The notes under the pieces are model-generated. The model saw nothing but the letters and a program-made list of their open reading frames with translations. It did no database searches and had not been told where the DNA came from. Positions 9,559 through 60,964 of a stretch of 64,000 bases of DNA are shown here, piece after piece (position 1 is the stretch's first letter; each line of letters begins with the position of its first letter). The position numbers were made by a program, and so were the translations under genes. This DNA is from Promethearchaeota archaeon (lineage in GTDB: Archaea; Asgardarchaeota; Lokiarchaeia; Sigyniarchaeales; SOKP01). The DNA is taken from the NCBI GenBank assembly GCA_048938005.1, contig JBHLMQ010000003.1:64001-128000 (forward strand). The letters run 5' to 3'.

Positions 9559-11286
9559 ATGTCGACAAAATTAGGAGAGGACGATGAATTAAGAAAAAAA
9601 GTGTGGAAAATCATCAATTTAATACAAGCTAATCAATTATTTGTACATTATAAAGATATGAGCATTAAGTACCTAGATGAAAAAAATAGAAAAATAAGTA
9701 CAAAATTATTGCCAGAAATATTATCACTATGCATTCTCAATGCCATAGTTCCCAACTCCGCTATGTTGTTAATTGGAGGTCATGGAGGGGGTAAAACCAC
9801 GCTTGTAAAGCTTTTAGGAAGGATGTTTACATCTAATTCACTTAATGATATTGAAAACTCTATCATAAGAGGCCATCCTCAATTAACTGAAGAGAAACTT
9901 ATTGGAACCTTAAAGCTAGGTAAATTGATGAAAGAAGGTGAGGAAGAAGTAGTATGGAGACAATTTGTTACAAATTTTTGGAAAATTATTGATGAAGTAA
10001 ATCGGTTAACTCCATATGCCCAAGATATTCTATTATCGTTATTAGCAGAGGGAACAGTAAAATATTATGATTCAATAACAACAATTAATAAATATTGCTT
10101 ATTTGCTACTATAAATCCACATGATATAGGGACTTTTGAATTATCTCAACCATTCTTAGATAGATTTGGAATCTCTGTTCCTATTTCAATGCCTGGAAGC
10201 CATGATTTGCAGTTAATCTTAACAGGAAAAGATGAAAAATATAGTGGGTATGATGAATTAATCCAAGTGCCTCAAGTTTTGAGTATAGATGAATTAATGG
10301 AAATACATTTTTATGTTAATAGAATTCCTTTCTCATCTGAAGTTAATAACTATATACATGCTATAATTAGAGAATTTACATTATGCTCGAGGGTTGATAA
10401 AGGAAATACTGAGGATTTAAAACCTAGTACCGGATTATGTTCAGGATGTCATTTTAACACAGCACAAAATATTTGTAATAAGATTGATTCAATTCTAAGT
10501 GTAAGGGTTGCTAAGGATCTATTAAGGTATTCAAAAGCTCTAGTATGGTTATTAGGAATTGATAAGATTGATGTTAATATTGTAAATACCATTGCTCCTT
10601 ATGTAATTTCACATAGAACTGTATATGTTAAAAGGGAATTAGATAAATCACCATATTTTGGAAACAAATATGAATTTACTAGAAATATCTTGAAAAGTGT
10701 CCAACAAAGATTTAAAAATCGTGAAACTTGTTATCAAATTGCTGATAGATTTCGTGAAGGAAGATCCAAAGATAATGATTTAACCGAATTAAAAAAATTC
10801 GAAAAGAATGATTTAATTGTAAAACATGATTTAATTCCATTTGTTAATTCAATTAACAATAAGGAATATCCTCCAATTGCACAACAAATACAAGAAGCAT
10901 CTAAGAAGGGAGATATTTCAAGACTCGCAGAAATTCGGAATGAACTCTTAGAAGAAATCGATTTCCCTAATAGAGGAGATCTAATTGAATGGTGTAATCG
11001 AGAACTATTTAAACAAACAGTTACCGATTATGTTATTAAATACTCTTATTGGAAAGAAGTTTGGGCCGACGTTGCGACTGAATTCTCTAATTTGGATCAA
11101 CCAATAAAAGAAGCATTTAGCCAAAGACAAACTAAACAAATTCGCACAGAAGATATGTTGATTGAAATTAATGTTACGGGAACTAAAGATGATTCATTAG
11201 TAAATATTCAGATTTCAGGAGGATCTGAAGCTTTAAAATTAAGAAATATTCTAGATAATTTAGAATACATACAAAAGGAAGAATAA
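9559..11286 (+). CDS. MoxR-type AAA+ ATPase
   Basis: Walker A GGHGGGKT, IDEVNR, ATINP, FLDRF. Confidence 0.88.
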   Translation: MSTKLGEDDELRKKVWKIINLIQANQLFVHYKDMSIKYLDEKNRKISTKLLPEILSLCILNAIVPNSAMLLIGGHGGGKTTLVKLLGRMFTSNSLNDIENSIIRGHPQLTEEKLIGTLKLGKLMKEGEEEVVWRQFVTNFWKIIDEVNRLTPYAQDILLSLLAEGTVKYYDSITTINKYCLFATINPHDIGTFELSQPFLDRFGISVPISMPGSHDLQLILTGKDEKYSGYDELIQVPQVLSIDELMEIHFYVNRIPFSSEVNNYIHAIIREFTLCSRVDKGNTEDLKPSTGLCSGCHFNTAQNICNKIDSILSVRVAKDLLRYSKALVWLLGIDKIDVNIVNTIAPYVISHRTVYVKRELDKSPYFGNKYEFTRNILKSVQQRFKNRETCYQIADRFREGRSKDNDLTELKKFEKNDLIVKHDLIPFVNSINNKEYPPIAQQIQEASKKGDISRLAEIRNELLEEIDFPNRGDLIEWCNRELFKQTVTDYVIKYSYWKEVWADVATEFSNLDQPIKEAFSQRQTKQIRTEDMLIEINVTGTKDDSLVNIQISGGSEALKLRNILDNLEYIQKEE

Positions 11287-21258: not shown

Positions 21259-22089
21259 GTGATTGCAATGGTAAAAAAAGAATATGTTTGCGAAAAATTA
21301 CTTGATCATTTCGATCAGGTATTTCAAGGTAAGAAAAGCAGTATAATTATAGAAGATTTTACTGATTTACGGGAAGGTGCTACATTAATTCTTGGTTTTG
21401 CAGGAATAGGTTTGATAGGACCAATTGTAGCTAATACTCTAATAGAACAATTACCTGATATAAAAGAGATAGGATTTGTAACAAGTGAATACCTCCCTCC
21501 TATAAGTGTTTTTTATGCTGGTGTGTTAAAACATCCTTTTAGAATTCTTTATTCACCCCAACATAACTTAATTATAGGAGTATGTGAAGTTCCTTTTCAA
21601 GTTTCTACAGCATATAATGATCTTGCTAAAACAATATGCAATTGGGCTTTATCTGAAGATATTAAGGCAAAAGAGATAGTAATCTTTCAAGGAATCCCCC
21701 AGAGAGGTATTATTGATGAATACCCTGTGTATTATGCGGCTGAGGAGAATATGATGAAATTTCTCGAGACATTTGAAATTAGTAAAGTTGAGAAAGGGAT
21801 AATAGTCGGTCCGGAAGCAACTGTTTTAAACGAAGCACTAACAAATAAATTAAATGCTTATGCATTATTTACCCCAGTATTAGAAATACCAACTCCTGAG
21901 GGTGCTGCTAGCATCTTAGAAATATTAAATAAAATTTATAAATTAAGTATTGATACAACTGCTCTTATTGAGCAAGGGAAAGAAATTAAAGCTAAAATGC
22001 TAGAGTTAGCTCAGAAAGCTTCGGAATATCAACAAAAACAAATTAGCGGACCTATTCCTGGAAAAGAATACACCGGCTATTTCCAGTAG
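21259..22089 (+). CDS. PAC2-family proteasome assembly chaperone-like protein
   Basis: LGFAGIGLIG..., PP...., PFRI, P.PEGAA, IDTT.L. Confidence 0.85.
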   Translation: MIAMVKKEYVCEKLLDHFDQVFQGKKSSIIIEDFTDLREGATLILGFAGIGLIGPIVANTLIEQLPDIKEIGFVTSEYLPPISVFYAGVLKHPFRILYSPQHNLIIGVCEVPFQVSTAYNDLAKTICNWALSEDIKAKEIVIFQGIPQRGIIDEYPVYYAAEENMMKFLETFEISKVEKGIIVGPEATVLNEALTNKLNAYALFTPVLEIPTPEGAASILEILNKIYKLSIDTTALIEQGKEIKAKMLELAQKASEYQQKQISGPIPGKEYTGYFQ

Positions 22090-37362: not shown

Positions 37363-39819
37363 TTATTCTTCGAATACGCTCTTCCATCTATCTAACTGCT
37401 TTAATAATTTTTGTGTATTAGGAACACGATTTATTTGCTCAGCATACATTGGATAATGTTTATGCAATATATTCAATAGATTAATCCAAGTTTTTTGACT
37501 TTCTGTTTTATTAGGGATTTCCTTTTTTAATTGAAAGATGATTCTTTTTTCTTTTTTAGTTTTTAGGGCCGTTAAAAAGTTTTTAGTAACAAATATTCTA
37601 AAACTGGAATATTCCTCGGGTCTAAATGCTGCTAATGAATAAATTATGCTTTCATCAGCATATGGGAAAAATTTAATCTTTTTATCTTCAGGCTCATCTG
37701 GATTATCAATTAAGGCAAGTTCTATATCAACATTACCAATATCTTCTAAGATTAAGTAGAATTCACCAGGATTAATATTTAATTTTCGTTCAATTTGACT
37801 TGTAATCTCAGATATTGGAAAGTGAAAATCTTGTATTTTTTCAGGATTTTCAATTCGGTAAAGATATTCTTTTTTGATCACTTGTATAATTTGATCCTTT
37901 AATTCTTTAGAAAAATCTTCCGTTGTAAAAGAAATCTGTGTTTCTTTTAATTTCTGTCGAAATAATTCTTTATCTCTTTGTTTTTTATTGTAATCAATAC
38001 TAAGTGAAGACAAAAATCTATCTGTGGGTTGATCCATCTCCGTACTCTTAATTAATCTACTAGATTTACTATCCTTTTCCCTCGCTCTTTCGAATATCCT
38101 TTCACTTAGATATTTTCTAGCTTTCTTTTGAGCAACACCTTTTTTTTCAAAACGTTCAGTCACGGATACAAAATCAATCATTTTTACAGGTTTCTCCAGT
38201 TCTTTTTTTTCTTCCTTAATCAAAATGTCCATATCTTTCCTTGCTAATTTCTCAAGAAGTGCATAGACATTACCTTTTGATAATTGAGTTGCTTTAATCA
38301 ATTCTCGCTCAATTATTGCAATTGGAAAAGCTTCACCTCTTCTAATATATTCACTTCTTATAATTTTATATATCTTATCGATGCTTCTTTCCTCTTCATC
38401 AACAATTTCTTTTTGTAATCTCATAAACATTGAGGTTTCCCGAGGTTTAAGATAATAGACTAGCAATGTACTACCTAAGAAAAAAATCATGAGCACTGAA
38501 ACAATATACTTATCACCCATTAATACAACACCTATATCAGTTATAACTTGATTAGGTATTTGATTCGCAAGAGAAAAACGTGTTAATGTTTGAGCAAATA
38601 CACAAGCTAAACATAACAAAATCAAACCGTCTTTTTTAAAGAATAGTATGCGCCATCCTAAAGTTTTACCAGTTTTTCGAATAATACGATACAAAAAGTA
38701 CATAGATACAATAAACTCAAATATAAAAACGTAAGAAACAGCTGAACCTGTTGCGCCTATTGATGCTTTAAAAGCATTGATTGTAGGATCTTGAAGCAAC
38801 ATATAAATACTAATTTCCAAAATTTGAAAGAAAAAGATAAATAATACTATCAAAGAAAACGTAAAATTATCGAATGTTCCTGCTCTTTTAGTTTCAGCGC
38901 GTCTTCTAGTAAATACAAATTCAAAAATAATAAACATTAATGTCATTACTAAACTAAAATAGATCAGTGGCATAACTACACGCATTTCTAGATTATATAC
39001 TTTAACAGCGCTACTAGGATTAAATAAACTAAAAAAATCTAAAGATAACCATACTAAAAAACTCCTATAAAACAATGAAAGTATAACAAGAACGCCTAAA
39101 ATAAAAAAAGGAATAATAATTGCCAGCCCATATCGAGGAATTGAATACTTTTTTATGAATCTTGCTTCTATTTTTGTTGAAAATTTCCTTGAATAGATAT
39201 AGAACCGACTACTCAATAAAATTAACCAGATCATCGCTAATGTTAATAAGTAAGTCATAAAGTTAATATTGGTTGAGGCATATAAAAAAAGGGAGTATAA
39301 TAATGAAATAAGACCACAATATAATATGAATTGTTTAATAGCAGTTTTTTTTTCAAAAATAAAGATTCGCACTTTATCAATACTAAATAAAATGGATAAA
39401 ACCATAAAAAATGCTACAATTGTATTTGAAAACGCAAAAGGGTTGCCAAACATTAAAATGTTAATCCAATTGCTTCCTGGAAGGTTAATTGCTATAATTA
39501 AAATTAGAGAATAAACTATAAATATTCCATATAATCCATAAAACTTTTTTTCAAAAGAATATGACGGTGGTACTTGACCGTCTACATACACCTCCTGATG
39601 GATGATTTTATTGTAAAAACCAGTTTTGATTTTGGATTTAAAAGCGCTCACCTTCGCCCTTTGTCTTGAAGAAAGATGTTTAACCTTATTCTTAACCCCT
39701 ATTCTTCTGAGTTTTGAAGTTTTTGATAATTTTAATTTCTTTAATTTCTCTTGTTTTTTTTTGGTCTCTTGTTCAGAACCATTTGACTTTTTTGAAGAAT
39801 TAGATTGCTTACCAGACAT
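37363..39819 (-). CDS. Polytopic membrane protein with basic N-terminus and large soluble C-terminus
   Basis: About 10-11 hydrophobic segments, then about 360 aa soluble region. Confidence 0.85.
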   Translation of the reverse strand: MSGKQSNSSKKSNGSEQETKKKQEKLKKLKLSKTSKLRRIGVKNKVKHLSSRQRAKVSAFKSKIKTGFYNKIIHQEVYVDGQVPPSYSFEKKFYGLYGIFIVYSLILIIAINLPGSNWINILMFGNPFAFSNTIVAFFMVLSILFSIDKVRIFIFEKKTAIKQFILYCGLISLLYSLFLYASTNINFMTYLLTLAMIWLILLSSRFYIYSRKFSTKIEARFIKKYSIPRYGLAIIIPFFILGVLVILSLFYRSFLVWLSLDFFSLFNPSSAVKVYNLEMRVVMPLIYFSLVMTLMFIIFEFVFTRRRAETKRAGTFDNFTFSLIVLFIFFFQILEISIYMLLQDPTINAFKASIGATGSAVSYVFIFEFIVSMYFLYRIIRKTGKTLGWRILFFKKDGLILLCLACVFAQTLTRFSLANQIPNQVITDIGVVLMGDKYIVSVLMIFFLGSTLLVYYLKPRETSMFMRLQKEIVDEEERSIDKIYKIIRSEYIRRGEAFPIAIIERELIKATQLSKGNVYALLEKLARKDMDILIKEEKKELEKPVKMIDFVSVTERFEKKGVAQKKARKYLSERIFERAREKDSKSSRLIKSTEMDQPTDRFLSSLSIDYNKKQRDKELFRQKLKETQISFTTEDFSKELKDQIIQVIKKEYLYRIENPEKIQDFHFPISEITSQIERKLNINPGEFYLILEDIGNVDIELALIDNPDEPEDKKIKFFPYADESIIYSLAAFRPEEYSSFRIFVTKNFLTALKTKKEKRIIFQLKKEIPNKTESQKTWINLLNILHKHYPMYAEQINRVPNTQKLLKQLDRWKSVFEE

Positions 39820-40136: not shown

Positions 40137-40415
40137 ATGCAAAAAAATAAAGTAGAAAACCGAGAAAAACTTATTCAATTAGTTAAAAGAGGTATTGAAC
40201 TACTCTGTGAAAAAAATATCTCAAGTGTAGTTATTCTCTCTTCTTATAAAATTAATTCGGTTTTGAAAGAGTATTATGGTATCAATTTGAAGGTTGACAA
40301 AATAGGTAGAATATTAAGTACAGTAGCGAAATTAAATGAATTAAAAAGATTAAATACAAATATTCCTAAATATAAATTACACATTTCGAGAGTTTCTAGT
40401 CTACAATTCTTTTGA
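40137..40415 (+). CDS. Small basic hypothetical protein (possible winged helix)
   Basis: 92 aa, KIGRILS..A...L...PKYKL. Confidence 0.6.
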   Translation: MQKNKVENREKLIQLVKRGIELLCEKNISSVVILSSYKINSVLKEYYGINLKVDKIGRILSTVAKLNELKRLNTNIPKYKLHISRVSSLQFF

Positions 40416-40423
40416 TTTCTCGT

Positions 40424-41824
40424 TTAAGTTAAATTCCGAAAATCTGTAATTATTTTTTGGAGTTTCTCAAGTAAAATCTTTATTTCTGAATTGTATTCTT
40501 TGAAGGGTTCTAATTGTGTGCTCAACTTCTCGACTTTTTCATTAATATTTGTCTGTAGTGGTGTAATTGAATTTTCAATCTTTTTTTCAATATCTTGAGC
40601 GATATTATTTACCTGATTATCGGTTGTAGCTATAAATGTCTGGAGATTCTTTATTGTTTCTTCAATATTTAAATTTGTTTCCATAGTTTCTTCGAATTTT
40701 TCCCTTGTTGAGTTAACTATAGTTTCCATCTCGTTATTTAGATTTTTAATATTCTTATCAATGAGAGTATTTAGTTTATTAATAAGATTATCTTTTGCTT
40801 TGGAGATGTCTTCCGTGAAACCTTTATTATCTTCGATTCGCTTTTCTACATATTTAGAAATGGTATTTTTAAACTCATTTGTAGTATCATTCAAAGTCTT
40901 TTTAAACCAATTATCTACTTTCACAAGTCCAGATGATATTGCCTCTCTCATTTTATTCACAGCTTTACTTATGTATTCAGTTCCTTTAGAAGTACCTTGA
41001 GTTATATCATCAATCCAATCTCCCATTTGAGTCGTAATCATATCCATCAACATTTCAGAAAATCTTTCTGAACCACGTTGAAAACTAGAAATTATTGGTT
41101 TTATTTGCTGATACTTTTCTATTTCTTCTTCACTTAGTCCAGCTTCATCAGATATTGGGATTTCTTGTAACTCTCCTGGAACTTGCTCTACAAATTCATT
41201 TATTTCCTTAATAAGGACAGGGGTCTTTTTCTGAAAATCCTCTAAAAATTTTTGAACCCATTTAAAATATTCTAATGTGTCTGGTATTTCAATTTCAAAT
41301 GATACTGTATGATATTTTTCTGGTTTAGAATAATCATCTAGCCTATAAATTTCAAATCCAAGATTCCCATCTTTCCCCATAAGAGTGTGATCAAACACAA
41401 TAGCAAAACCGTTTGGAAATTTTTCATTTTGAAAAAACTGTAAATTCTTTAAATCACTTTCTGATAAATACAATCCCCATGAAGGATGAGAATGATAATA
41501 TCCAATTAAATCTGATGAATATTTCTTCCCAATCTGGCTAAATAATTCATAAGCATCTTTATCAAAACCAATTTCTACTTTATCTCCGTGAATTATTGGT
41601 ACAGCATTTTCTATTATAATTTTATCATCATTAGAATCATATTTTCCTACACAGATTCCCATTACTTCTACACTTTTTTCTAAATTATGACTCCCAAAAC
41701 GTAGAACATGGGTAATCATATTTCTGAAAGCCTCTTTTTTAATGAATACTAGCCCTTTATCAAATTTATTCTCATCATTTATATCTTTTTGATTTGAGTT
41801 ACTATCTAATTTTTCTTCGACCAT
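40424..41824 (-). CDS. JAMM/MPN+ metalloprotease with long helical/coiled-coil C-terminus
   Basis: EVMGICVG; GYYHSHPSWGLYLSESD. Confidence 0.9.
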   Translation of the reverse strand: MVEEKLDSNSNQKDINDENKFDKGLVFIKKEAFRNMITHVLRFGSHNLEKSVEVMGICVGKYDSNDDKIIIENAVPIIHGDKVEIGFDKDAYELFSQIGKKYSSDLIGYYHSHPSWGLYLSESDLKNLQFFQNEKFPNGFAIVFDHTLMGKDGNLGFEIYRLDDYSKPEKYHTVSFEIEIPDTLEYFKWVQKFLEDFQKKTPVLIKEINEFVEQVPGELQEIPISDEAGLSEEEIEKYQQIKPIISSFQRGSERFSEMLMDMITTQMGDWIDDITQGTSKGTEYISKAVNKMREAISSGLVKVDNWFKKTLNDTTNEFKNTISKYVEKRIEDNKGFTEDISKAKDNLINKLNTLIDKNIKNLNNEMETIVNSTREKFEETMETNLNIEETIKNLQTFIATTDNQVNNIAQDIEKKIENSITPLQTNINEKVEKLSTQLEPFKEYNSEIKILLEKLQKIITDFRNLT

Positions 41825-41830
41825 TTCTCC

Positions 41831-43303
41831 TTATTCCTCTCCTTTTTCTAATTTTTTTATCTTATTTGATAGATCTTGATTTTCCTTTTTTAATCCTATG
41901 ATGTTCTTTTGAAGGGTTTTGATTTCAATTTCTTGTGTATCTAGTTTGTTTTGTAATGGAGTCTTTGAGCTTTCTAATAATATTATTGCTGCTTTTAAGT
42001 CTGAAAGAAAACTTTTATTATCTTTATTTAAATTGATAAAATTTCCTATAACTTTATTAATATTTTTTATGAAATTTCCAGATAAATTTTCGAAACTTTC
42101 ATTTAATTTATTAAAGGTCAAGTCTTCTATTGAATTAATATTTTCTAATAAATTTTCTAAAACACTAATTTGTTTGTCCAAAATTTCAGAAGACCTTAAT
42201 CCTATACTATTAATTTCAGTTAATTTTTGCCCGTGTTTATCTAATAAATTTAAAATCTTTTTCAGATTATCTTCTAACTTTTCTCCGAATAATATATTAA
42301 ATTGTTCTTTAAGTTCAGTTTTAATTTTATCAAAGTATTCTCTGAAAAATTCCTGATCAGAGTCAAATTCTTCGAATCTATCATCAATATACATATCTAA
42401 TTCATTTAATTTTTCCTTTAATGCAAATTTGAAATCTTTTTGTAAATTAGAGATTCCATCACCTAGATTTTCTTTTATTTTAATAATATCCTTTCTCATT
42501 TGCAGATTATTCTCAACAATATTATTAATCATACCTTCACTCCAAGAATTGAGAAATAATATAAATGGTGCAATAAAAAGTTCTAAAAAATTTGATACTC
42601 CATCTTTGAGAGTAGAAAGGATCTTTGCAGAATCTAATTCCGGTTTCTTTGAAAAAATTTGGCTTTCACTTGGAAAAACAATATCTCCAAACAAATCAGG
42701 CATTTCATTAATTTCTAAGATGGGAGATTCTTGCGAGTGAACACAATTAATTAATTCCATTAGTTTTATATAATATTCAATCTTATCTGGAGGTTCTACG
42801 GTGGTTTCTACTTCATGATAACCAGACATTTGACCCTTAGCAGGATTATCTAATCGAAATGTACGAAATCCCAAATCTCCAGGAGTTTCTAAATGAGTAT
42901 GATCAAATACAATACCAATTGCACTTGGATTTGGGGTTTGCCAACCAAGCTGATTGCGTACATCTGTTGAGGAAAAGAAAATATCTAACCCTGGATGCGA
43001 ATGAAACCATCCACAACTAAACCAATTATTTTCTGCATAAGCTGCATCAACCATAGAGAAGGTTACATAATCTTCCGGCTGGAAAGCGACTTCAATCGAA
43101 CTCCCATGCGAAATTGGAACAGCATCTTCAATAATAACATCTCTTATTCCTTTCTTATCTGGTTCTCCCTCAAGATGTCCTATTAAAATACCCATAACTT
43201 CTCTAAATTGTTTTCTATCTCTTACTTTATTACCAAACCGAAGGACATGTAGAAGCATTTTATAGTATGCTTCTGGTTTAATAATAACTGTTTTATCAGT
43301 CAA
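41831..43303 (-). CDS. JAMM/MPN+ metalloprotease with long helical/coiled-coil C-terminus
   Basis: EVMGILIG; GWFHSHPGLDIFFSSTD. Confidence 0.9.
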   Translation of the reverse strand: MTDKTVIIKPEAYYKMLLHVLRFGNKVRDRKQFREVMGILIGHLEGEPDKKGIRDVIIEDAVPISHGSSIEVAFQPEDYVTFSMVDAAYAENNWFSCGWFHSHPGLDIFFSSTDVRNQLGWQTPNPSAIGIVFDHTHLETPGDLGFRTFRLDNPAKGQMSGYHEVETTVEPPDKIEYYIKLMELINCVHSQESPILEINEMPDLFGDIVFPSESQIFSKKPELDSAKILSTLKDGVSNFLELFIAPFILFLNSWSEGMINNIVENNLQMRKDIIKIKENLGDGISNLQKDFKFALKEKLNELDMYIDDRFEEFDSDQEFFREYFDKIKTELKEQFNILFGEKLEDNLKKILNLLDKHGQKLTEINSIGLRSSEILDKQISVLENLLENINSIEDLTFNKLNESFENLSGNFIKNINKVIGNFINLNKDNKSFLSDLKAAIILLESSKTPLQNKLDTQEIEIKTLQKNIIGLKKENQDLSNKIKKLEKGEE

Positions 43304-43594
43304 ATGTAATCACGATTTATAAAAGATTGAGATATACTTTGTTAATGATATATATATAATTTAATTGGTTTTAAATATTTGAATTAAAGATTAGTAGCAA
43401 AATTTGATTTTCAAAATTTTTATTTAATGATAATTTTTTATGAAATTCAAATATATTTGATAGACATATTAATTGAACTGTATTGAATAAGATGTAATAT
43501 TAAAAAAAAATTTACTAATTAAATTATTGATTTTCTTTTTTTGTTTATATAAATAACTATATACAATTCTTCAAGATTTTTTCAAGCATATCTA

Positions 43595-43732
43595 TCATAA
43601 TTTTCCAAGACCACTTATGATGTAATATATGCCTAATACTATCATTGCAATAGCAAAGATGGCCCAAACCCATCTTGGTACCCGTCTCTTTTTAGGTTCG
43701 GGTTGATCTGGTTCAGATTCAGATTCGGACAT
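43595..43732 (-). CDS. 45-aa tail-anchored membrane microprotein (not in ORF track)
   Basis: GTGA SD then MSESESEPDQPEPKKRRVPRWVWAIFAIAMIVLGIYYIISGLGKL*; GC above flanks. Confidence 0.75.
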   Translation of the reverse strand: MSESESEPDQPEPKKRRVPRWVWAIFAIAMIVLGIYYIISGLGKL

Positions 43733-43855
43733 TTTTTTTCACTTTTTATTTCTTTATTACATTATAGAAATTACATTATCTTGTATTTAAATGCATTTGT
43801 CCTTGAATAACCTTTAGGACTAAAATTGAGGCATGAAGAAAAAAATTATCACTTA

Positions 43856-44500
43856 TTAACCTTCATGAGGTAATCTCTTACCACAATAGGGACAGTATAT
43901 AAATCCTAAATCTTTTCCGCAAAAAGGACAAAAATCACCCTCTTTAGCTGCTTGTACTTCAGTTCCTTCCTTTGGTATTGAAGGTAATTGTCTTGATGTT
44001 TTAAGAGTTGATGCTGAAGTTTGAGTTTCTACCTTTCTTGCTGCTACTGTCGCCCTAAAAGCTCGTCTTCTCTCTTCCTCAAGTTCTTCTTGAGATTTTA
44101 TTCCTTCTGACTTTACCCAACCTTGAACCTTAGGTCTTTTTAATTCACTTTCTGGAACTTTTTCTAATTCTATTTCTCTAGTTTCTGATAAAGGAGCCAT
44201 TACTTTTCTTTGATCTTTCTTCTGTATTGCTTGCTTAACGAGGGCTTGAGTTGTTTTCATTACTTGATGTGGGTTAATATTAGGAATCGCAACAGTCCGT
44301 AATACCCACCCGACGATCAAATTTTGATTAGGAAAATCACCTTGAACATCCTCATCCTTAAATACATATGAATCGATTATATCTCTCCCTTTTAATAAAC
44401 GTATTGCCCATTTCTCATTAATTTCTCCTAATTGGATTCTATAACTAGTCCCCGGGACTCCCAATTCGCTTGTGAGAGGAATAAAACCTTTTTCAGCCAC
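43856..44500 (-). CDS. Hypothetical protein with C-terminal double zinc ribbon
   Basis: CPFCG...CPYCG; GTGA SD with GTG start. Confidence 0.8.
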   Translation of the reverse strand: MAEKGFIPLTSELGVPGTSYRIQLGEINEKWAIRLLKGRDIIDSYVFKDEDVQGDFPNQNLIVGWVLRTVAIPNINPHQVMKTTQALVKQAIQKKDQRKVMAPLSETREIELEKVPESELKRPKVQGWVKSEGIKSQEELEEERRRAFRATVAARKVETQTSASTLKTSRQLPSIPKEGTEVQAAKEGDFCPFCGKDLGFIYCPYCGKRLPHEG

Positions 44501-44762
44501 TTTAAATCACTTTTTTTAAAAAGATAATATGATTTCAGTAATATTATAAAAATAAATTTTGAATTTAAATTATTTTTTATTTATGGTAAAAATTCATTGT
44601 AAAGTTAAAAATTTTATTGGATAGCTTTACTATAATACTTAAGGAAAGACTGAATTCTTTTAATTTTTTTTTGGAATAAAAAACACATAAATAGAACAAT
44701 TTGTATTAGTTTGTAAAAACTCATAAATTTATAAATTAACATTTGCATAATGAGGTGATCTA

Positions 44763-45719
44763 ACGGTTATAATTATTCCAAAAGAGGTCTATTTAACTAT
44801 TGTTGCAGCTTCTGTGAGATATGCAAATACTCGCATACCTAAAGATGATTGGCTTGAAGTTAGTGGGATTTTTACTGGTAGAAATGAAGGAGATGATGTT
44901 CTTATAACAAAGGCTTACCCTATCATGCATCAAGAATTAGATAGAGACGCTGTTATTGATCAATATAAATGGAATAATGAAGATTATGAATCTCTTTATA
45001 TTATTGATGAACAAGCCTTTTCAAGAGATCCCCCTGAGTTTGTTGTTGGATGGTGGCATTCACACCCTGGTTTTAAAGTAATGATGTCACATATTGATAT
45101 CCAAACAACACTATCTTATCAACAAAACAATCCTTTAGCAATCTCGCTTGTATTTAATCCAATAAGATTACTTCGTCAAATTGAAGTAGCAGAAAAAAAG
45201 GGAGATCCCGATAAGCAATTAAAAAATGATCCTGGGTTTAAAATTTTTCGATTAGATGATGTTGGTCGAGGTGTTGAAGCGGCTTATCATACAGTTGATT
45301 ATAAAATTGAAGGATATGAAAGTATGGAACAATTAATTAATACAACACAGAAATTTATAATTGATGTTGCTAATTTTTTTCCTAGAGAAAAAGTTCCAAA
45401 GACTTATGAAAAATTCATTGATGATCGTATAAACCAATTTAATGCACTAATTCTTGGAACTGAAGAATATTTAACTACTTTAACACATCGGGGTGAGAAA
45501 ACAAGAATTCCAGAAGTTTTAGAAAATCAAAATCAAGAAATTCGTAAATTTGTTGCAGATACTTCTGTAAAAATAGAAAATATTAAGGAATTCGCGGACT
45601 ATTTAGAATATAAAGAAAAGGAAGCAATAGTAACTCAAATTGAGAGTATTTTATATAAATGGGATGAAACTGTTTCTGGATTAGATAAGAGATTGAAACA
45701 ATTATCTAAGAAATTTTAA
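44763..45719 (+). CDS. JAMM/MPN+ metalloprotease with helical tail; probable near-cognate start upstream of 44814
   Basis: EVSGIFTG; GWWHSHPGFKVMMSHID; upstream frame TVIIIPKEVYLTIVAASVRY aligns with paralog N-termini; GAGGTGAT at 44752. Confidence 0.85.
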   Translation, partial: TVIIIPKEVYLTIVAASVRYANTRIPKDDWLEVSGIFTGRNEGDDVLITKAYPIMHQELDRDAVIDQYKWNNEDYESLYIIDEQAFSRDPPEFVVGWWHSHPGFKVMMSHIDIQTTLSYQQNNPLAISLVFNPIRLLRQIEVAEKKGDPDKQLKNDPGFKIFRLDDVGRGVEAAYHTVDYKIEGYESMEQLINTTQKFIIDVANFFPREKVPKTYEKFIDDRINQFNALILGTEEYLTTLTHRGEKTRIPEVLENQNQEIRKFVADTSVKIENIKEFADYLEYKEKEAIVTQIESILYKWDETVSGLDKRLKQLSKKF

Positions 45720-45844
45720 ATCTAATAATTTTCATCTTATTTTTAATTTTGATAAATTTTTATGTGATTACGTTTTTCTATGATTAATTAAGCTATTTAA
45801 TAAATTAAGAAATATCATAGAATTCTCAAAATACAACTTTTATT

Positions 45845-48049
45845 ATGAAAAAAATTAATTTTCCGTTTACAGCGATTCTTGGTCAAGAAAAAATGAAGAT
45901 GGGGTTAATTTTGAATGTTATTGACCCTCAAATAGGTGGAATACTATTAACTGGCCAACAAGGTACTGGAAAAAGCACTGCTGTAAGATCACTCGTAGAA
46001 TTAATGCCACAAATCGAAGTTATTAAGGGTTGTGAATTCTCATGTGACCCTTATTCAGATATAGATGATTTATGTCAAAATTGTATAGAAAAGCAGGAAA
46101 AAAAGCAGGTTAAAACTGAATTCAGGGACATGTGGCTAGTTAATTTACCTTTAGGAGTTACAGAAGACATGGTTTGTGGAAGTTTGTCGATAGACAAAGT
46201 GTTAACTGAGGGTATAAGAGCTTTACACCCTGGACTACTTGCTAAAGCAAATCGAGGTATTTTATATGTGGATGAAATTAATCTTCTTCAAGATCATATT
46301 GTTGATGTTCTTTTAGATTCTGCTGCTTCAGGTGTGAATATTATAGAAAGAGAAGGCATTTCTGTATCACACCCTTCAAAGTTTGTATTAGTCGGTTCAA
46401 TGAACCCAGAAGAAGGCGATTTACGTCCACAAATTGCAGATCGTTTAGGGTTAGAAGTAAGAATAAAAGCACCTAGAGATCCCGAATTGCGTGCTGAAAT
46501 AACTAAAAGAGTTATAGAATTTGATGATCATCCAAAAGAATTCATTAAGAACTTCGAAGATAACCAAGAAAAATTGAGAAAACAAATCTTAAACGCTCGT
46601 AAAATATTAAAGGAAGTTCAAATTCCAAATTCAGTTTATGAATTTGTGTCTAAAATTGTAAATGAGTTAGAAATCTTTTCTCAAAGAGCTGATATTACTT
46701 TTATTCGATGTGCAAGGGCTCATGCAGCATTAAATAACAGAAAAGTTATATCAGAAGATGATCTAAATGTTGCAATGGATTTAGTATTTGAACATAGAAT
46801 GCAATCGCTCCATTATGAAATGACGCCAAAAGAAATTCAATCAAAAATTGCTGAAGTTTATGGCAAAATAAAAGAAGCATATGAAAATCTAAAGGTGCTT
46901 CGACCAAATAAAGAGACAGAAGGGCCTTTAAAGCATTCAGACAAACCACAAAAAGAGTTTCAACGGCAATCTGTAGATCCTGATAAAGTTGATATCTCCG
47001 AGTCAAAAGAACAAAAACTACCTCCTCCAAAATATCCTGATAACAAACAACGGAATCCTAGACCCGCTGGAGGGTGGAAGGTTAAAAATATTCCCTTTGA
47101 TGATGATCTTAAATTCTTTGAAGCGAAAAATGTATCAATGCCATTTATTTATAAAATGGAAAAGAAAATAACTTCAATCTTAGATGATATTAGGAAAGAT
47201 AAGAAAATTTCTGATTATGGTGGAAGAGGAATAGGAAGGAGAATCAAAATCTCTTCATCTCAAAAGGGAAGATATGTATCTTATAGAAAACCAATCCGTG
47301 AAGAACCTAAAAGTATTGCATTAGATGCCACTATTAGAAACTATTTGAAAAATATTATTTACAATAAAACAGATATCCATTTTCCGATTCATTTTAATAA
47401 ATATGATTTAATGGATAAAATCTATGAATATCGAGCTCCTTTAGTTTTATTTTTTGTATTAGATAGTTCTGCTTCAATGTACTATGTAATAAAGCAAATG
47501 ACGGATGTAATATTGTCTTTACACAGAGAGGGGTATAGAAAGAGAGATAAAATAGCTTTAATTGTCTTTCGAGGTAAAAAAGCGGTCGTTTTACAAAATC
47601 CTACTGTAAATTTTAAGATGGCAGTAAATAAGTTGAAAAGAATAGAAGGAAAATCATATACTCCTATGGCTGCTGCATTAAAAAAAGTATCAGAGCTTAT
47701 AAAAGTCGAAAAATTAAAAAATCGGCAATCAGTACCTGTAGTTTTCATTTTATCTGATTGTGGTGCCAATATCTCTTCTAAATACCCTGATTTAATAGCC
47801 CAAGTAGAAACAGATTATACTTTAATAACACATGAATTAAAAGAGTTAACAAAAAAATTATCTAAACAAAATATACATATGGTTGTACTAGAGCCTAAAA
47901 AATCTTATGCAACACACGCACTTGGAGTACACACCTATTCTGCAGAAAAAATTAAGAAGAATTTTAAAAAATATGGGAATGCTCATGTATACAAATTTGA
48001 TAAATATGATCCTAATTCCTTAATATTAGAATTGAAAAAAATACTCTAA
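45845..48049 (+). CDS. ChlI/ChlD-like chelatase AAA+ ATPase fused to vWA domain
   Basis: FPFTAILGQ, GQQGTGKST, GLLAKANRGILYVDEINLL, NPEEGDLRPQ, MIDAS DSSASM. Confidence 0.9.
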   Translation: MKKINFPFTAILGQEKMKMGLILNVIDPQIGGILLTGQQGTGKSTAVRSLVELMPQIEVIKGCEFSCDPYSDIDDLCQNCIEKQEKKQVKTEFRDMWLVNLPLGVTEDMVCGSLSIDKVLTEGIRALHPGLLAKANRGILYVDEINLLQDHIVDVLLDSAASGVNIIEREGISVSHPSKFVLVGSMNPEEGDLRPQIADRLGLEVRIKAPRDPELRAEITKRVIEFDDHPKEFIKNFEDNQEKLRKQILNARKILKEVQIPNSVYEFVSKIVNELEIFSQRADITFIRCARAHAALNNRKVISEDDLNVAMDLVFEHRMQSLHYEMTPKEIQSKIAEVYGKIKEAYENLKVLRPNKETEGPLKHSDKPQKEFQRQSVDPDKVDISESKEQKLPPPKYPDNKQRNPRPAGGWKVKNIPFDDDLKFFEAKNVSMPFIYKMEKKITSILDDIRKDKKISDYGGRGIGRRIKISSSQKGRYVSYRKPIREEPKSIALDATIRNYLKNIIYNKTDIHFPIHFNKYDLMDKIYEYRAPLVLFFVLDSSASMYYVIKQMTDVILSLHREGYRKRDKIALIVFRGKKAVVLQNPTVNFKMAVNKLKRIEGKSYTPMAAALKKVSELIKVEKLKNRQSVPVVFILSDCGANISSKYPDLIAQVETDYTLITHELKELTKKLSKQNIHMVVLEPKKSYATHALGVHTYSAEKIKKNFKKYGNAHVYKFDKYDPNSLILELKKIL

Positions 48050-48140: not shown

Positions 48141-49382
48141 ATGACTGATAACTCAAATTCTGTGCTAGTTGTTGGATATAATACTCGTCCATTAGCTACT
48201 TCTCTGAATAAAGCAGGATATGTTGTATATGCAGTGGATTTTTTTGGCGATTTAGATCTCTATCCCTATATAGAAGATTATATTATAATCGTGAAAGAAT
48301 TACAAGGTAATTATAACTCTTTAAAAGATAAATATAGTAAGTATTTAGTTGATTTTACATTGAACTTATACCGTATTTATAAGGACGTAAAGTTCTTATT
48401 AATCGGTAGTGGGTTAGATGATGCCTACGAAGGGAGAAAACGTATTTTAGACGAAATTAAAAATTTCAGTACAATAAGTGTCAATAACAATTTAGAAATT
48501 ATAAAAAAATCAAGAAATATTGAATATCTTTTTGAATTTCTTAAATTCCAAGGGTATAAAGTTCCATTATATTGTTCCTTTGAAAAATTTCAATTAAAGA
48601 GATCTATCTTGGAATTTCCTTTCATCTTAAAAAAAAAGAGAAGTGCTGGAGGCGTTAATGTTTTTAAAATTGAAGATGAGAGGAATTTTAATTCTCAAGT
48701 AAAGATTTTACAAGAGAAAATGTTTATCGCGTCAGATTGGGTGATTCAAGAATATATCGAAGGAATTCCTGTTAGTTGTACAGTGATTTCAGATGGTAAA
48801 GAATGTGAGATTATCTCTATCAATCGTCAAATCATAGGAGAAAAGTTTCTAAATTCTCCAAAGGAATTTATGTATTGTGGTAATATTGTACCTGGAGGAT
48901 TGTTGAAAGATGAAACGAGAATCATATCTGAAATTTCAAAATTTTTAACTGAAGAATTAGGCTTAAAAGGAATTAATGGATTTGATTTTGTATTAAAAGA
49001 TCATTATCCATATTTTATGGAATGTAATCCAAGAATCCCTGGTTCTATAAGTGCTTCAGAATCTGTACTAGATTTAAATCTCGTAGATTTGCATATAAAA
49101 AGCTTTTTGCTTAATGAATGGATTAGTATTAAAAAAATGATTAAATCTGCCATGCCAAAAACATTTGCAACAAAATTAATATTTTTTGCCCCCAAAGTTA
49201 TTGAAAAAAATCTATTACCAGAAATTAATAATCTTGAATTTGTTTATGATAAACCTGAACCAATAAAGAATATTTTAAAAGGTGAACCTTTATGTACTGT
49301 TTTATATGAAGCAGATAATTTCTCTGAATCTTTTAATGGGGCAAAAAAGATTGTAAATAAAATAAATAAAATTATTGGATAA
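48141..49382 (+). CDS. ATP-grasp ligase (archaeal cofactor-biosynthesis-associated type)
   Basis: DFFGDLD, SAGG, QEYIEG, YCGN, GINGFDF, ECNPR. Confidence 0.85.
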   Translation: MTDNSNSVLVVGYNTRPLATSLNKAGYVVYAVDFFGDLDLYPYIEDYIIIVKELQGNYNSLKDKYSKYLVDFTLNLYRIYKDVKFLLIGSGLDDAYEGRKRILDEIKNFSTISVNNNLEIIKKSRNIEYLFEFLKFQGYKVPLYCSFEKFQLKRSILEFPFILKKKRSAGGVNVFKIEDERNFNSQVKILQEKMFIASDWVIQEYIEGIPVSCTVISDGKECEIISINRQIIGEKFLNSPKEFMYCGNIVPGGLLKDETRIISEISKFLTEELGLKGINGFDFVLKDHYPYFMECNPRIPGSISASESVLDLNLVDLHIKSFLLNEWISIKKMIKSAMPKTFATKLIFFAPKVIEKNLLPEINNLEFVYDKPEPIKNILKGEPLCTVLYEADNFSESFNGAKKIVNKINKIIG

Positions 49383-49393
49383 TTATTCTTATA

Positions 49394-50131
49394 CTACTGG
49401 ATGATTGCTTTTATTTTCGCGATGTAAGTTCCTAATTTCCTCCCATCTGATTCTGGAACAGCAAGTGCTAAGACTCTATTCTCATCTAAATCATGTATTA
49501 TAACAGAACCATTTTCTCCACCTATTATTGAATATTCCATACCACTTTCTAATAAAACTCCAGATAAATTATATAATGCAGCAACCATAGCTGAAAGAAT
49601 AGGTTCAGGCATAGTAGATTGAATCTTAATTGGTAATCCATCTTTAGTTATTATTGCTAAAACAAGAGTGTTTGGAATAGCTCGTTTCAGTCCCTTAAAT
49701 ATTTCTTCTTTGAGTATGTCTGATGTCTCAATAATAGCAGATATTTGTAAACTTAATTTTTGTAATTTATCAATATGAGAATCCAGTCCTTCAAGCTCAG
49801 CTAATTCTCTATTTAAATAAGTTATCATAGATATATTTTCTGTTAAAATTGAAAGGACAATTTTATCTTTCCCAATAATTAAATTATAAGAAACTTCTTG
49901 ATTTAGTGAATCTCTTAACATTTTAGATGATAGAAATACAAGACTGCTGTTAGCAGCTGTAACTTCCCCTGTTGTCATTTTAATATCTTTTTTAAATTTA
50001 TTTGCAACTTTAGTTCCTTCAGGAGTTCCAATATTAATCCCTAATACAGCTGGGGAGGATTGTAGTTCCCTTTCTATTAATTCAGCAATATCTGATTGTA
50101 AAGCTTCGATTATTTTATCTTGCTTTTCCAT
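49394..50131 (-). CDS. Tandem Roadblock/LC7-domain protein
   Basis: Two approximately 120-aa units: IGTPEGT..AA and IITKDGLPI...SAMVAA...IIGGENG. Confidence 0.75.
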   Translation of the reverse strand: MEKQDKIIEALQSDIAELIERELQSSPAVLGINIGTPEGTKVANKFKKDIKMTTGEVTAANSSLVFLSSKMLRDSLNQEVSYNLIIGKDKIVLSILTENISMITYLNRELAELEGLDSHIDKLQKLSLQISAIIETSDILKEEIFKGLKRAIPNTLVLAIITKDGLPIKIQSTMPEPILSAMVAALYNLSGVLLESGMEYSIIGGENGSVIIHDLDENRVLALAVPESDGRKLGTYIAKIKAIIQ

Positions 50132-60271: not shown

Positions 60272-60964
60272 TTAAATAGGTAATATCGAAGTGTCTGAAA
60301 TTTCTTTATCAACTGGAGCTTCTCCATCTCCATATATATGATACAACACAGTTCTTCTAGCAATCTCATAAAAACTACGATATATATCTTTTTCTTGATC
60401 GTATAATGCACAAGTTTTGTAAATTAATGGATTCCAAATAAATAAATTATGTTTAGGCTCATACCAAAGTTTTTCCTTTTTCAATATTTGAATAAAATTG
60501 TCATCATTAATTACATTTTTGAGATCTTGCTTATTCAACATAATAATAAATGGAATCTCTTTAATGAGTCTATTATTTGTTATGTTTTTTAATTCTAATA
60601 GAAATTCAATATTATCTTCAAAAAATTTTGTTTGAGAATCTACTACAAAAATTACGGCATCAGTTTGGGCATCAAGACTATTGAAGACTTTAATTCTTAA
60701 TGGAGTGAATGTTTTTTGACCTGCAACTGTATATACTCTATAATATATTTTTTTCTTCTTTGTCGATTGGAAAATACCTCTATCAAAATAAAGTGTAGCA
60801 CCACTTGCTCTATCTATTTTTTGTAACTCCCCAACAGGAACAATTTCTCTTTTACTGTCTTTTGTTAGTTTATAAAGAGTTTCCAATATGGTAGTCTTTC
60901 CGGATCCTGCCATGCCATAGTACACAATCTTCAGGTAGATATTACCGTTTTTGTATTGAACCAT
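60272..60964 (-). CDS. MglA-like small GTPase
   Basis: KIVYYGMAGSGKTT, TLYFD, YTVAGQ, FVVDSQ, NKQD, TCA. Confidence 0.88.
   Translation of the reverse strand: MVQYKNGNIYLKIVYYGMAGSGKTTILETLYKLTKDSKREIVPVGELQKIDRASGATLYFDRGIFQSTKKKKIYYRVYTVAGQKTFTPLRIKVFNSLDAQTDAVIFVVDSQTKFFEDNIEFLLELKNITNNRLIKEIPFIIMLNKQDLKNVINDDNFIQILKKEKLWYEPKHNLFIWNPLIYKTCALYDQEKDIYRSFYEIARRTVLYHIYGDGEAPVDKEISDTSILPI

Follow-up and report, generated by a model that had tools for sequence, protein, structure and literature searches.

The stretch of DNA analysed here, referred to as the window, comprises 64,000 nucleotides (nt) of the genome of a Promethearchaeota archaeon, an Asgard archaeon of the class Lokiarchaeia (assembly GCA_048938005.1, contig JBHLMQ010000003.1, positions 64,001 to 128,000). 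The G+C content of the window is about 29%, and the source genome is 3.72 Mb in size and 95.3% complete. There are three genes in the window that code for proteins with an MPN domain of the JAMM type. JAMM2 (positions 41831–43303, minus strand) encodes 490 amino acids (aa) from a TTG start codon, and JAMM1 (40424–41824, minus strand; 466 aa) starts 6 nt past the JAMM2 stop codon. JAMM3 (44769–45719) is on the plus strand and has no canonical start codon at the conserved position. All three proteins match the Pfam family JAB (PF01398; cut-off 22.5 bits): JAMM1 with 38.2 bits (E 1.4e-9), JAMM2 with 41.7 bits (E 1.2e-10) and JAMM3 with 45.6 bits (E 7.1e-12). In a three-way alignment, the Glu of EV(M/S)G, the sequence H-S-H-P, the Ser and Asp of the JAMM motif and a VF..GF..RLD..YH.V block are invariant. 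Each protein has a complete E..H-S-H-x7-S-x2-D site, followed by a helical tail of 130–260 residues. An initial annotation of the window had described three such paralogues with these motifs and the shared block, and the open reading frames (ORFs), the Pfam matches and the alignment agree with that description, the start of JAMM3 having been corrected. We lean towards the view that JAMM2 and JAMM1 are two subunits of one putatively co-transcribed MPN–MPN heteromer, in which JAMM2 would be the catalytic and JAMM1 the auxiliary subunit.

The assignment of the three proteins as eukaryote-type MPN+ proteins, similar to Rpn11, CSN5 and BRCC36 and unlike the ordinary short archaeal JAMM proteins, is supported by several kinds of comparison. 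The best matches in phmmer searches against the Protein Data Bank (PDB) are the Rpn11 homologue of Caldiarchaeum subterraneum (CsRpn11), Rpn11 and CSN5 (E 4e-9 to 1e-8), with BRCC36 and AMSH matching more weakly. JAMM2 as a single protein matches CsRpn11 (6fjv) with E 4.2e-9; the family profile of JAMM2 matches CsRpn11 with E 9.9e-15, Rpn11 with E 7e-12, and BRCC36 and CSN5 with E 4e-10; and the family profile of JAMM3 matches CSN5 (E 3e-12). Among the PDB matches listed for the single proteins or the profiles, there is no short stand-alone archaeal JAMM chain. The Pfam family Prok-JAB is below its cut-off for all three proteins, and JAMM1 matches the NCBIfam desampylase model weakly (E 4.4e-5; 23 bits versus a cut-off of 130). 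An AlphaFold2 model was made of JAMM2 (62-sequence alignment, mean pLDDT 74.5). In this model the MPN domain corresponds to residues 1–188 (block-mean pLDDT mostly 70–93). The linker (about residues 190–228) is of low confidence or disordered, yet carries a conserved P-I-L-E-I-N-E motif, and residues 225–487 are predicted to form one continuous helix. Foldseek ranks BRCC36 first for this model (6gvw_B, E 5.9e-13), followed by CSN5 and Rpn11, with a probability of 1.00. The JAMM tree holds no eukaryotic sequences, and the ranking of PDB matches is a weaker substitute for placement in a tree. The likeness to Rpn11, CSN5 and BRCC36 proposed in the initial annotation is nevertheless found alike in the PDB, profile and Foldseek rankings, and the three proteins do not group with ordinary stand-alone archaeal JAMM proteins, as far as match ranking shows.

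The homology between JAMM1 and JAMM2 extends from end to end and takes in the tail (27.8% identity over 454 residues, E 3e-40), and JAMM3 can be aligned with them over the MPN domain only. In the tree, JAMM1 and JAMM2 form orthogroups of their own, which are older than the split between the family to which the window belongs (f1) and its sister family (f2, represented by genome G165). Other handles used below are g3 for a genus, L for a compared locus and C for a contig of the window's own genome. JAMM2 is matched in 68 of 68 sampled f1 genomes at E ≤ 1e-5, and in 64 of these at E ≤ 1e-90; thus, the gene set is not due to chance. A full-length JAMM2 orthologue is present in one f2 genome (G165), and elsewhere in the phylum, in its other families, the matches are only weak (E 1e-6 to 1e-25). 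For the comparison of gene order and active sites, 35 loci were scanned: 15 from genome contigs and 20 regions picked for genus diversity. Three duplicate loci (L019, L024 and L029) were left out, and 26 distinct f1 loci were used for the spacing counts. Database counts refer to the 120 best clusters at 90% identity for each JAMM protein from a large protein collection.

The tandem arrangement of JAMM2 and JAMM1 has been highly conserved: the start of JAMM1 lies between −11 and +17 nt from the JAMM2 stop codon in 25 of the 26 distinct f1 loci. Conserved synteny, which the initial annotation had named as a check, is found for this pair and, as described below, for JAMM3 and its divergent neighbour. 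The active sites of the two proteins have had different histories. In matched alignments of 27 loci, the four residues E/H/H/D are intact in every JAMM2, whereas at least one of them is substituted in 12 of the 27 JAMM1 proteins; Zn ligands have been lost in 10 of these 12 degenerate loci (e.g. H>I, H>S, H>L, H>R, D>A, D>G). At least five state changes on the JAMM2 tree are needed to account for the pattern of site loss in JAMM1. The database clusters give the same picture: of the 114 clusters spanning all four columns, 114 have an intact JAMM2 site (six other clusters are cut at the N-terminus, and still keep H, H and D), whereas the JAMM1 site is intact in 71 of 118 clusters and has lost at least one catalytic residue in the remaining 47. 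The extreme case is that of G165, in which a JAMM1 homologue of 422 aa (25% identity, E 1e-13) overlaps the JAMM2 stop codon by 19 nt and is fully degenerate (E>G, H>S, H>R, D>N), and Pfam JAB is no longer detected in it. The initial annotation had all MPN subunits still active; this holds for the genome of the window and for part of the family, but not for JAMM1 in the degenerate clusters nor in the sister family.

The degenerate JAMM1 copies are full length, and the segment that follows the MPN domain (E179..P223, in the numbering of the window protein) is invariant. The terminal branches of JAMM1 are about 2–7 times longer than those of JAMM2 from the same genomes. Judged by sequence, this pattern of retention and loss is what marks a catalytic subunit together with a partner that has no need for catalysis, as in the eukaryotic pairs Rpn11–Rpn8, CSN5–CSN6 and BRCC36–KIAA0157. 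As the JAMM1 site is intact in the window and often degenerate in relatives, we read JAMM1 as an MPN(+/−) partner subunit.

The tails of the two proteins are under an unusual constraint on length, counted here from a conserved Trp. The JAMM1 tail has 192–199 residues in all 27 orthologues, with zero indels over 192 columns at 30–84% identity. The JAMM2 tail is free of indels for 170 residues and is variable only beyond these, giving a total of 211–302 residues. Such a ruler-like constraint fits helices that are held in register against a partner; which partner this would be is not proven. Taken together, the full length of the degenerate JAMM1 copies, their invariant segment and their indel-free tail imply that these copies are not decaying.

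Complex prediction was carried out with full-length JAMM2 and JAMM1 (27-row alignment for each), as had been suggested for the hetero-oligomer of the initial annotation. The pair scored 0.60 (runs of 0.63, 0.60 and 0.57), compared with 0.00 for the best of three controls, which was graded as weak support. In the benchmark for this score, 116 of 157 solved complexes attained the pass mark, as did 2 of 215 mismatched pairs; scores of 0.60 or below were found in only 18 of the 157 solved complexes, and in both of the mismatched pairs that passed. The runs share at least 69% of their contacts, and the pLDDT of the partner is at least 65. As MPN heterodimers have already been solved, a pass in this test may reflect likeness to them. 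From the heteromer first proposed for this locus, the JAMM2–JAMM1 pair remains as the best reading, in view of its tandem genes, one-sided site loss, indel-free tails and weak complex score; the partners proposed in addition, an AAA-vWA protein and a 45-aa protein, are not supported.

From domain identity, conservation and loss of sites, synteny and tail length, we infer the following arrangement. JAMM2 would be the obligate Zn isopeptidase of the heteromer, its activity being predicted from its sequence. JAMM1 would be its paralogous partner with a structural or regulatory role, which is why its own active site could be lost. The two would pair via their MPN heads and/or their long amphipathic helices. 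These helices would be locked in register over about 170–190 residues, i.e., about 25–29 nm if fully helical, with JAMM2 extending variably at its C-terminus. The reaction would be the cleavage of C-terminal (iso)peptide bonds of ubiquitin or ubiquitin-like proteins, made by E1/E2 systems encoded on other contigs. Pfam scans of the ORFs revealed no ubiquitin, E1 or E2 gene within the window, in agreement with the initial annotation, and the matches to PF00240, PF00179 and PF00899 in the genome are on other contigs. Contig C97 (about 11.8–17.0 kb) has three ubiquitin-like matches, an E1, an E2 and an Rpn11-like JAMM gene; C9 (about 64.7–66.7 kb) has an E2–E1–JAMM cluster; and C76 (about 6.5–9.9 kb) has an E2 and E1 pair. 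Ubiquitin or ubiquitin-like proteins are also encoded on C56. It is likely that the clusters on C97, C9 and C76 are the sources of substrates for the orphan tailed JAMM proteins.

Several observations weigh against this interpretation. The loci compared are from related genomes, hence the counts are not independent events. In one locus (L016), JAMM2 and JAMM1 are 6,046 nt apart. In the genome of the window the JAMM1 site is complete, and here JAMM1 could be an independent enzyme. The lengths of the JAMM1 and JAMM2 tails do not co-vary (r = −0.58), and the hydrophobic period of the tails is 3.62–3.64 residues versus 3.5 for a canonical coiled coil. The complex score amounts to weak support, no interface was returned with it, and pairing mediated by the tails would go beyond what the prediction shows. 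As there is no adjacent ubiquitin, E1 or E2 gene, the substrate can only be guessed at from the enzyme family. Elsewhere in the locus, JAMM3 is without a canonical start codon in the window, and in genus g3 the gene for the Zn-ribbon protein Znr214 is 10.6 kb from JAMM3, which is still beside the AAA-vWA gene (both neighbours are described below).

Some of these points would be expected if the three proteins were independent, stand-alone JAMM proteases, each forming homo-oligomers via its own tail, with the adjacency of JAMM1 and JAMM2 resulting from tandem duplication and JAMM1 being lost in places. All three sites are complete in this genome, the two genes of the pair are 6 kb apart in one locus, the complex score is weak, and the structural study of CsRpn11 describes that protein as having crystallised as a homodimer (PMC6043591). 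Genes on their way to being lost would not be expected to look as JAMM1 does: the degenerate copies, with their invariant linker and 192-column indel-free tail, are unlike decaying genes, the spacing of −11 to +17 nt has been held in 25 of 26 loci at 30–40% identity, and even the fully degenerate copy in G165 is an intact gene that overlaps the JAMM2 stop codon. We consider stand-alone proteases unlikely for these reasons.

The nature of the tails bears on a further alternative. The tails match the Pfam family Apolipoprotein (E 3.5e-9), and the JAMM2 family profile matches the solved structures of ApoA-IV (E 1e-8) and ApoA-I (E 6e-8). Given these matches and the period of 3.62–3.64 residues, which fits straight amphipathic or hendecad helices over heptads, a straight amphipathic or hendecad helix, possibly binding to a surface, is as likely as a classical coiled coil. 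Perhaps, then, the proteins are mainly structural or surface-binding: their apolipoprotein-like tails would coat a membrane, lipid or filament, and their MPN heads would process a non-ubiquitin substrate or act in binding, as the lack of an adjacent ubiquitin gene might also suggest. The catalytic residues are kept in 114 of 114 JAMM2 clusters and 120 of 120 JAMM3 clusters, which implies that catalysis is under selection, and the MPN domains are closest to dedicated ubiquitin and Nedd8 isopeptidases. Furthermore, the matches of long helices to apolipoproteins, and to the proteins ZorA and LmuB, may be due to composition only. A mainly structural role is thus rather improbable, and being compatible with a heterodimer, it overlaps with the heteromer that we favour. 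Starting from that heteromer, a bolder and distinctly more tentative proposal can be made: an Asgard lineage may have evolved eukaryote-style pairing of active and inactive MPN proteins in a deubiquitinase on its own and been caught mid-transition, both subunits being catalytic in some genomes and the partner having turned into a pseudoenzyme in others, with the pair mounted on a rigid stalk of about 25–29 nm, its length fixed to the residue, whose apolipoprotein-like periodicity may set the distance of the enzyme from a membrane or other surface.

JAMM3 would be a third, always-active paralogue, probably forming a separate module with the neighbouring, Asgard-specific Zn-ribbon protein Znr214. 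The JAMM3 site is intact in 18 of 18 aligned loci (L006, L009, L022 and L023 were left out of this alignment), as it is in all 120 clusters, and the tail is a shorter conserved helical stretch of about 130 aa. The reading frame of JAMM3 is open from 44754. The orthologues begin with M-(T/V/I)-V-I-I-P-K in 12 of 12 cases, and the codon at the position of the conserved ATG is CTA in the window. The first canonical start codon, a GTG at 44814, would remove a conserved N-terminal strand, and a publicly deposited gene prediction of 314 aa would place the start at an ATT codon at 44775. The start is likely to be an ATA or ATT at 44769–44775. The start region is identical in contigs from three sequencing runs of three studies (one of these runs may be the source sample), and this identity shows that the unusual start is no slip of assembly. 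Irregular reading frames were also seen elsewhere: the JAMM3 orthologues at L003:5886-6859 and L007:309-1290 match as two pieces in different frames, for which a frameshift or a sequencing error is possible; the JAMM3 orthologue of L023 (11590–12527) is likewise in two pieces; and there are single in-frame stop codons in several JAMM2 orthologues.

Znr214 (43856–44500, minus strand; 214 aa) is upstream of JAMM2 and divergent from JAMM3. An alignment of 22 sequences has four invariant Cys residues, and the protein ends in a CPxCG..CPxCG zinc ribbon, which follows a linker. The N-terminal domain of about 100 aa is modelled by AlphaFold2 with a pLDDT of about 85–91. A Foldseek search with this fold against the PDB gave nothing at E ≤ 0.001. 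With VIA-align, the best match was to a designed protein (Z 6.8), and PH-like domains (EVH1, Ran-binding and talin F3) had Z values of 3.8–5.0, which are within the background of that tool. An Atlas search returned only the protein's own cluster, which is Asgard-only. None of these searches gave a convincing match to a known fold or family. JAMM3 and Znr214 are divergent neighbours, 176–526 nt apart, in 19 of the 20 f1 loci that have both genes complete, and 1,251 nt apart in the other one. In G165, Znr214 is still divergent from JAMM3, and the JAMM2 pair is on another contig. Neither the adjacency of JAMM3 to Znr214 nor that of JAMM3 to the AAA-vWA gene is universal.

The AAA-vWA gene (45845–48049, plus strand) encodes a ChlI/ChlD-type fusion protein of 734 aa. 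It matches the Pfam families Mg_chelatase, AAA_lid_2 and VWA_2, and the DxSxS MIDAS motif is intact. The protein aligns over nearly its whole length with TIGR02442 (putative cobaltochelatase; 599.5 bits, E 7.4e-180), below the cut-off of 779.45 for that model. No match to CobN/ChlH (PF02514) was found in the 95.3%-complete genome, and 5 of 14 control genomes had such a match; thus, a role as a chelatase subunit is doubtful. Full-length orthologues of the AAA-vWA protein (38–46% identity) are present in the families f21, f10 and f6, where matches to JAMM2 are only weak (E 1e-6 to 1e-17). In 12 of 18 loci, 100–141 nt separate JAMM3 from the AAA-vWA gene downstream of it; in the other six, inserted genes of 1.6–4.6 kb in total lie between the two. 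In G165, the AAA-vWA gene is 40 kb from JAMM3, beside genes for coiled-coil, nucleotidyl-transferase and Roadblock proteins, which are its neighbours in the window too. Given its wider distribution and the 40-kb separation in the sister family, the AAA-vWA gene is treated as a neighbour with its own job, and its role as a partner of the JAMM proteins is not supported. The protein is 72–94% identical in most f1 genomes and 61–62% identical in g3. An ATP-grasp gene (48141–49382, plus strand) follows it in the window and in those f1 loci that reach far enough, and not in G165.

The 45-aa ORF (43595–43732, minus strand), which has one hydrophobic segment, is doubtful as a gene. A tblastn search of the 35 loci (E ≤ 1e-3) found it in only one, the 91%-identical relative L001, although so short a peptide could escape detection, and it has no family match. 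As a conserved transmembrane partner, this ORF was set aside for having been detected in only one other locus. The membrane tethering proposed in the initial annotation depended on this ORF and falls with it. These findings bear directly on the original picture of one membrane-tethered hetero-oligomer, in which three active JAMM proteins would be joined by the 45-aa transmembrane protein, the Zn-ribbon protein and the AAA-vWA ATPase. The clustering of all of these genes in the window, the position of JAMM3 just upstream of the AAA-vWA gene in two-thirds of the loci and its adjoining position in g3, the lack of a CobN partner for a chelatase role, and the retained DxSxS motif of the vWA domain would each be in keeping with such an assembly. 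Nevertheless, it appears highly improbable: one of its components is detected in a single close relative; another has orthologues in families without tailed JAMM proteins, is 40 kb off JAMM3 in G165, is separated from it by insertions in 6 of 18 loci and scores 599 bits to a chelatase-type model; and JAMM1 would often be inactive, as far as its site residues indicate. In the JAMM2–JAMM1 heteromer as we conceive it, the AAA-vWA gene and the 45-aa ORF would be neighbours and not parts.

On the other side of the tandem lie two further genes. The first, orf92 (40137–40415, plus strand), is convergent with JAMM1 and encodes a small conserved protein, with 64–81% identity across the loci that have it; its clusters are Asgard-only and hypothetical. 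It matches no family in Pfam and other profile libraries (E up to 10), and there is no paralogue in the genome. The second, mem818 (37363–39819, minus strand), is divergent from orf92 and encodes a protein that spans the membrane several times and is soluble in its C-terminal half. It is a single-copy gene, kept beside orf92 in most f1 loci and replaced in L016, and it has no family match and no PCI match, even at E up to 10. No gene of the locus matches a PCI domain, and the PCI-like matches of the genome are on other contigs or, on the window's own contig (C11), at a distance of about 96 kb. One of the former, an open frame of 795 aa at C82:1882-2715(−), has four PCI/winged-helix-like matches (best E 2.1e-6) and is not near any JAMM gene. 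An anti-phage defence system with a JAB component was also considered. PADLOC gave only generic JAB models and a long-helix likeness to ZorA and LmuB, and no match for Znr214, mem818, orf92 or the 45-aa ORF; as the matches were only generic, the defence reading was dropped.

The whole genome has seven JAB matches. Two of these are further tailed JAMM paralogues with intact motifs: that at C91:8698-10305(−) is TPR-like in its C-terminal half and is represented in G165 by an orthologue (L031), and that at C38:11066-12253(−) has a helical tail. The tailed MPN+ family is thus expanded, with at least five members per genome. In two genomes of the same class (G240 and G297), the proteins at L034:4642-6297(−) and L035:5743-7194(−) carry a TPR region at the N-terminus, which matches MIT weakly (E 2e-5 and 8e-4), and a JAB domain after it. 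This order of domains recalls AMSH, and one of the two proteins has a weak PCI match (E 0.004). Elsewhere in the window there are a MoxR-like AAA_5 ATPase (9559–11283), followed, up to 14070, by proteins of 573 and 330 aa without a Pfam match, and three genes with eukaryote-flavoured domains: those for a protein of the PAC2 proteasome-assembly-chaperone family (21259–22086), a protein of 245 aa with a Roadblock/LC7 match (49394–50131) and an Arf-like small GTPase (60275–60964).

To our knowledge, the eukaryotic MPN+ isopeptidases that act as part of large complexes (Rpn11, CSN5, BRCC36) all have an inactive MPN− paralogue as their partner. The structural study of archaeal Rpn11 from 2018 stated that an MPN+/MPN− organisation was not known in archaea (PMC6043591). 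In the accessible portions of an ESCRT survey (PMC10936438) and of a preprint on UEV-Vps23, MPN appears only as a label in gene-cluster figures or text. In full-text literature searches, the scope of which was articles outside supplements and subscription-only papers, no account of Asgard MPN proteins with tails or in pairs came up. An active/inactive MPN pair of the kind that JAMM2 and JAMM1 appear to form has been thought to be restricted to eukaryotes. Asgard genomes whose partner subunit ranges naturally from active through partly degenerate to fully degenerate would make it possible to test directly why such pairs form and what an inactive subunit adds, and such tests would be feasible with small recombinant proteins. 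Tailed deubiquitinase-like enzymes would also add a new class to the ubiquitin toolkit of Asgard archaea.

The JAMM proteins of the window can be compared with four known systems. With short archaeal JAMM proteins of the desampylase (HvJAMM1) type they have the JAMM Zn motif in common, but those proteins are without tails. CsRpn11 is the best sequence match of JAMM2, and a JAMM gene of this operon kind is present on contig C97 of the same genome. According to its structural description, CsRpn11 is short, is encoded in a ubiquitin operon and crystallised as a homodimer (PMC6043591). By contrast, the JAMM proteins of the window are encoded outside any ubiquitin operon and are long-tailed, and JAMM2 and JAMM1 are paired, with site loss on one side.

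A third comparison is with the pairs formed by BRCC36 with KIAA0157 or Abraxas, in the BRISC and BRCA1-A complexes. BRCC36 is the top Foldseek match of the JAMM2 model. The pairing of BRCC36 with Abraxas uses C-terminal coiled-coil helices, and the complex has a vWA subunit, MERIT40. In contrast, the vWA gene beside JAMM3 is more widely distributed and codes for an ATPase fusion of the ChlI/ChlD type, the JAMM locus showed no UEV-like partner, and the sequence match to BRCC36 is weaker than those to Rpn11 and CSN5. Like JAMM2, BRCC36 is an MPN+ protein; it is an enzyme which requires an MPN− pseudo-deubiquitinase partner, as the report on this pair describes (PMC4579573).

Finally, the pairs Rpn11–Rpn8 of the 26S proteasome lid and CSN5–CSN6 of the COP9 signalosome belong to PCI-MPN complexes, of which eIF3 is another, whereas there is no PCI gene in the JAMM locus. 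The JAMM tails are predicted single helices of about 230–260 residues, compared with the short bundle helices of those complexes, and the partner, JAMM1, is still MPN+ in many genomes, that of the window included. What JAMM2 and JAMM1 have in common with these pairs is the same MPN+ Zn site, yeast Rpn11 and CSN5 being among the best solved matches, the location of helices C-terminal to the MPN domain and, if our reading is correct, the combination of a catalytic subunit with a paralogue whose own site is dispensable.

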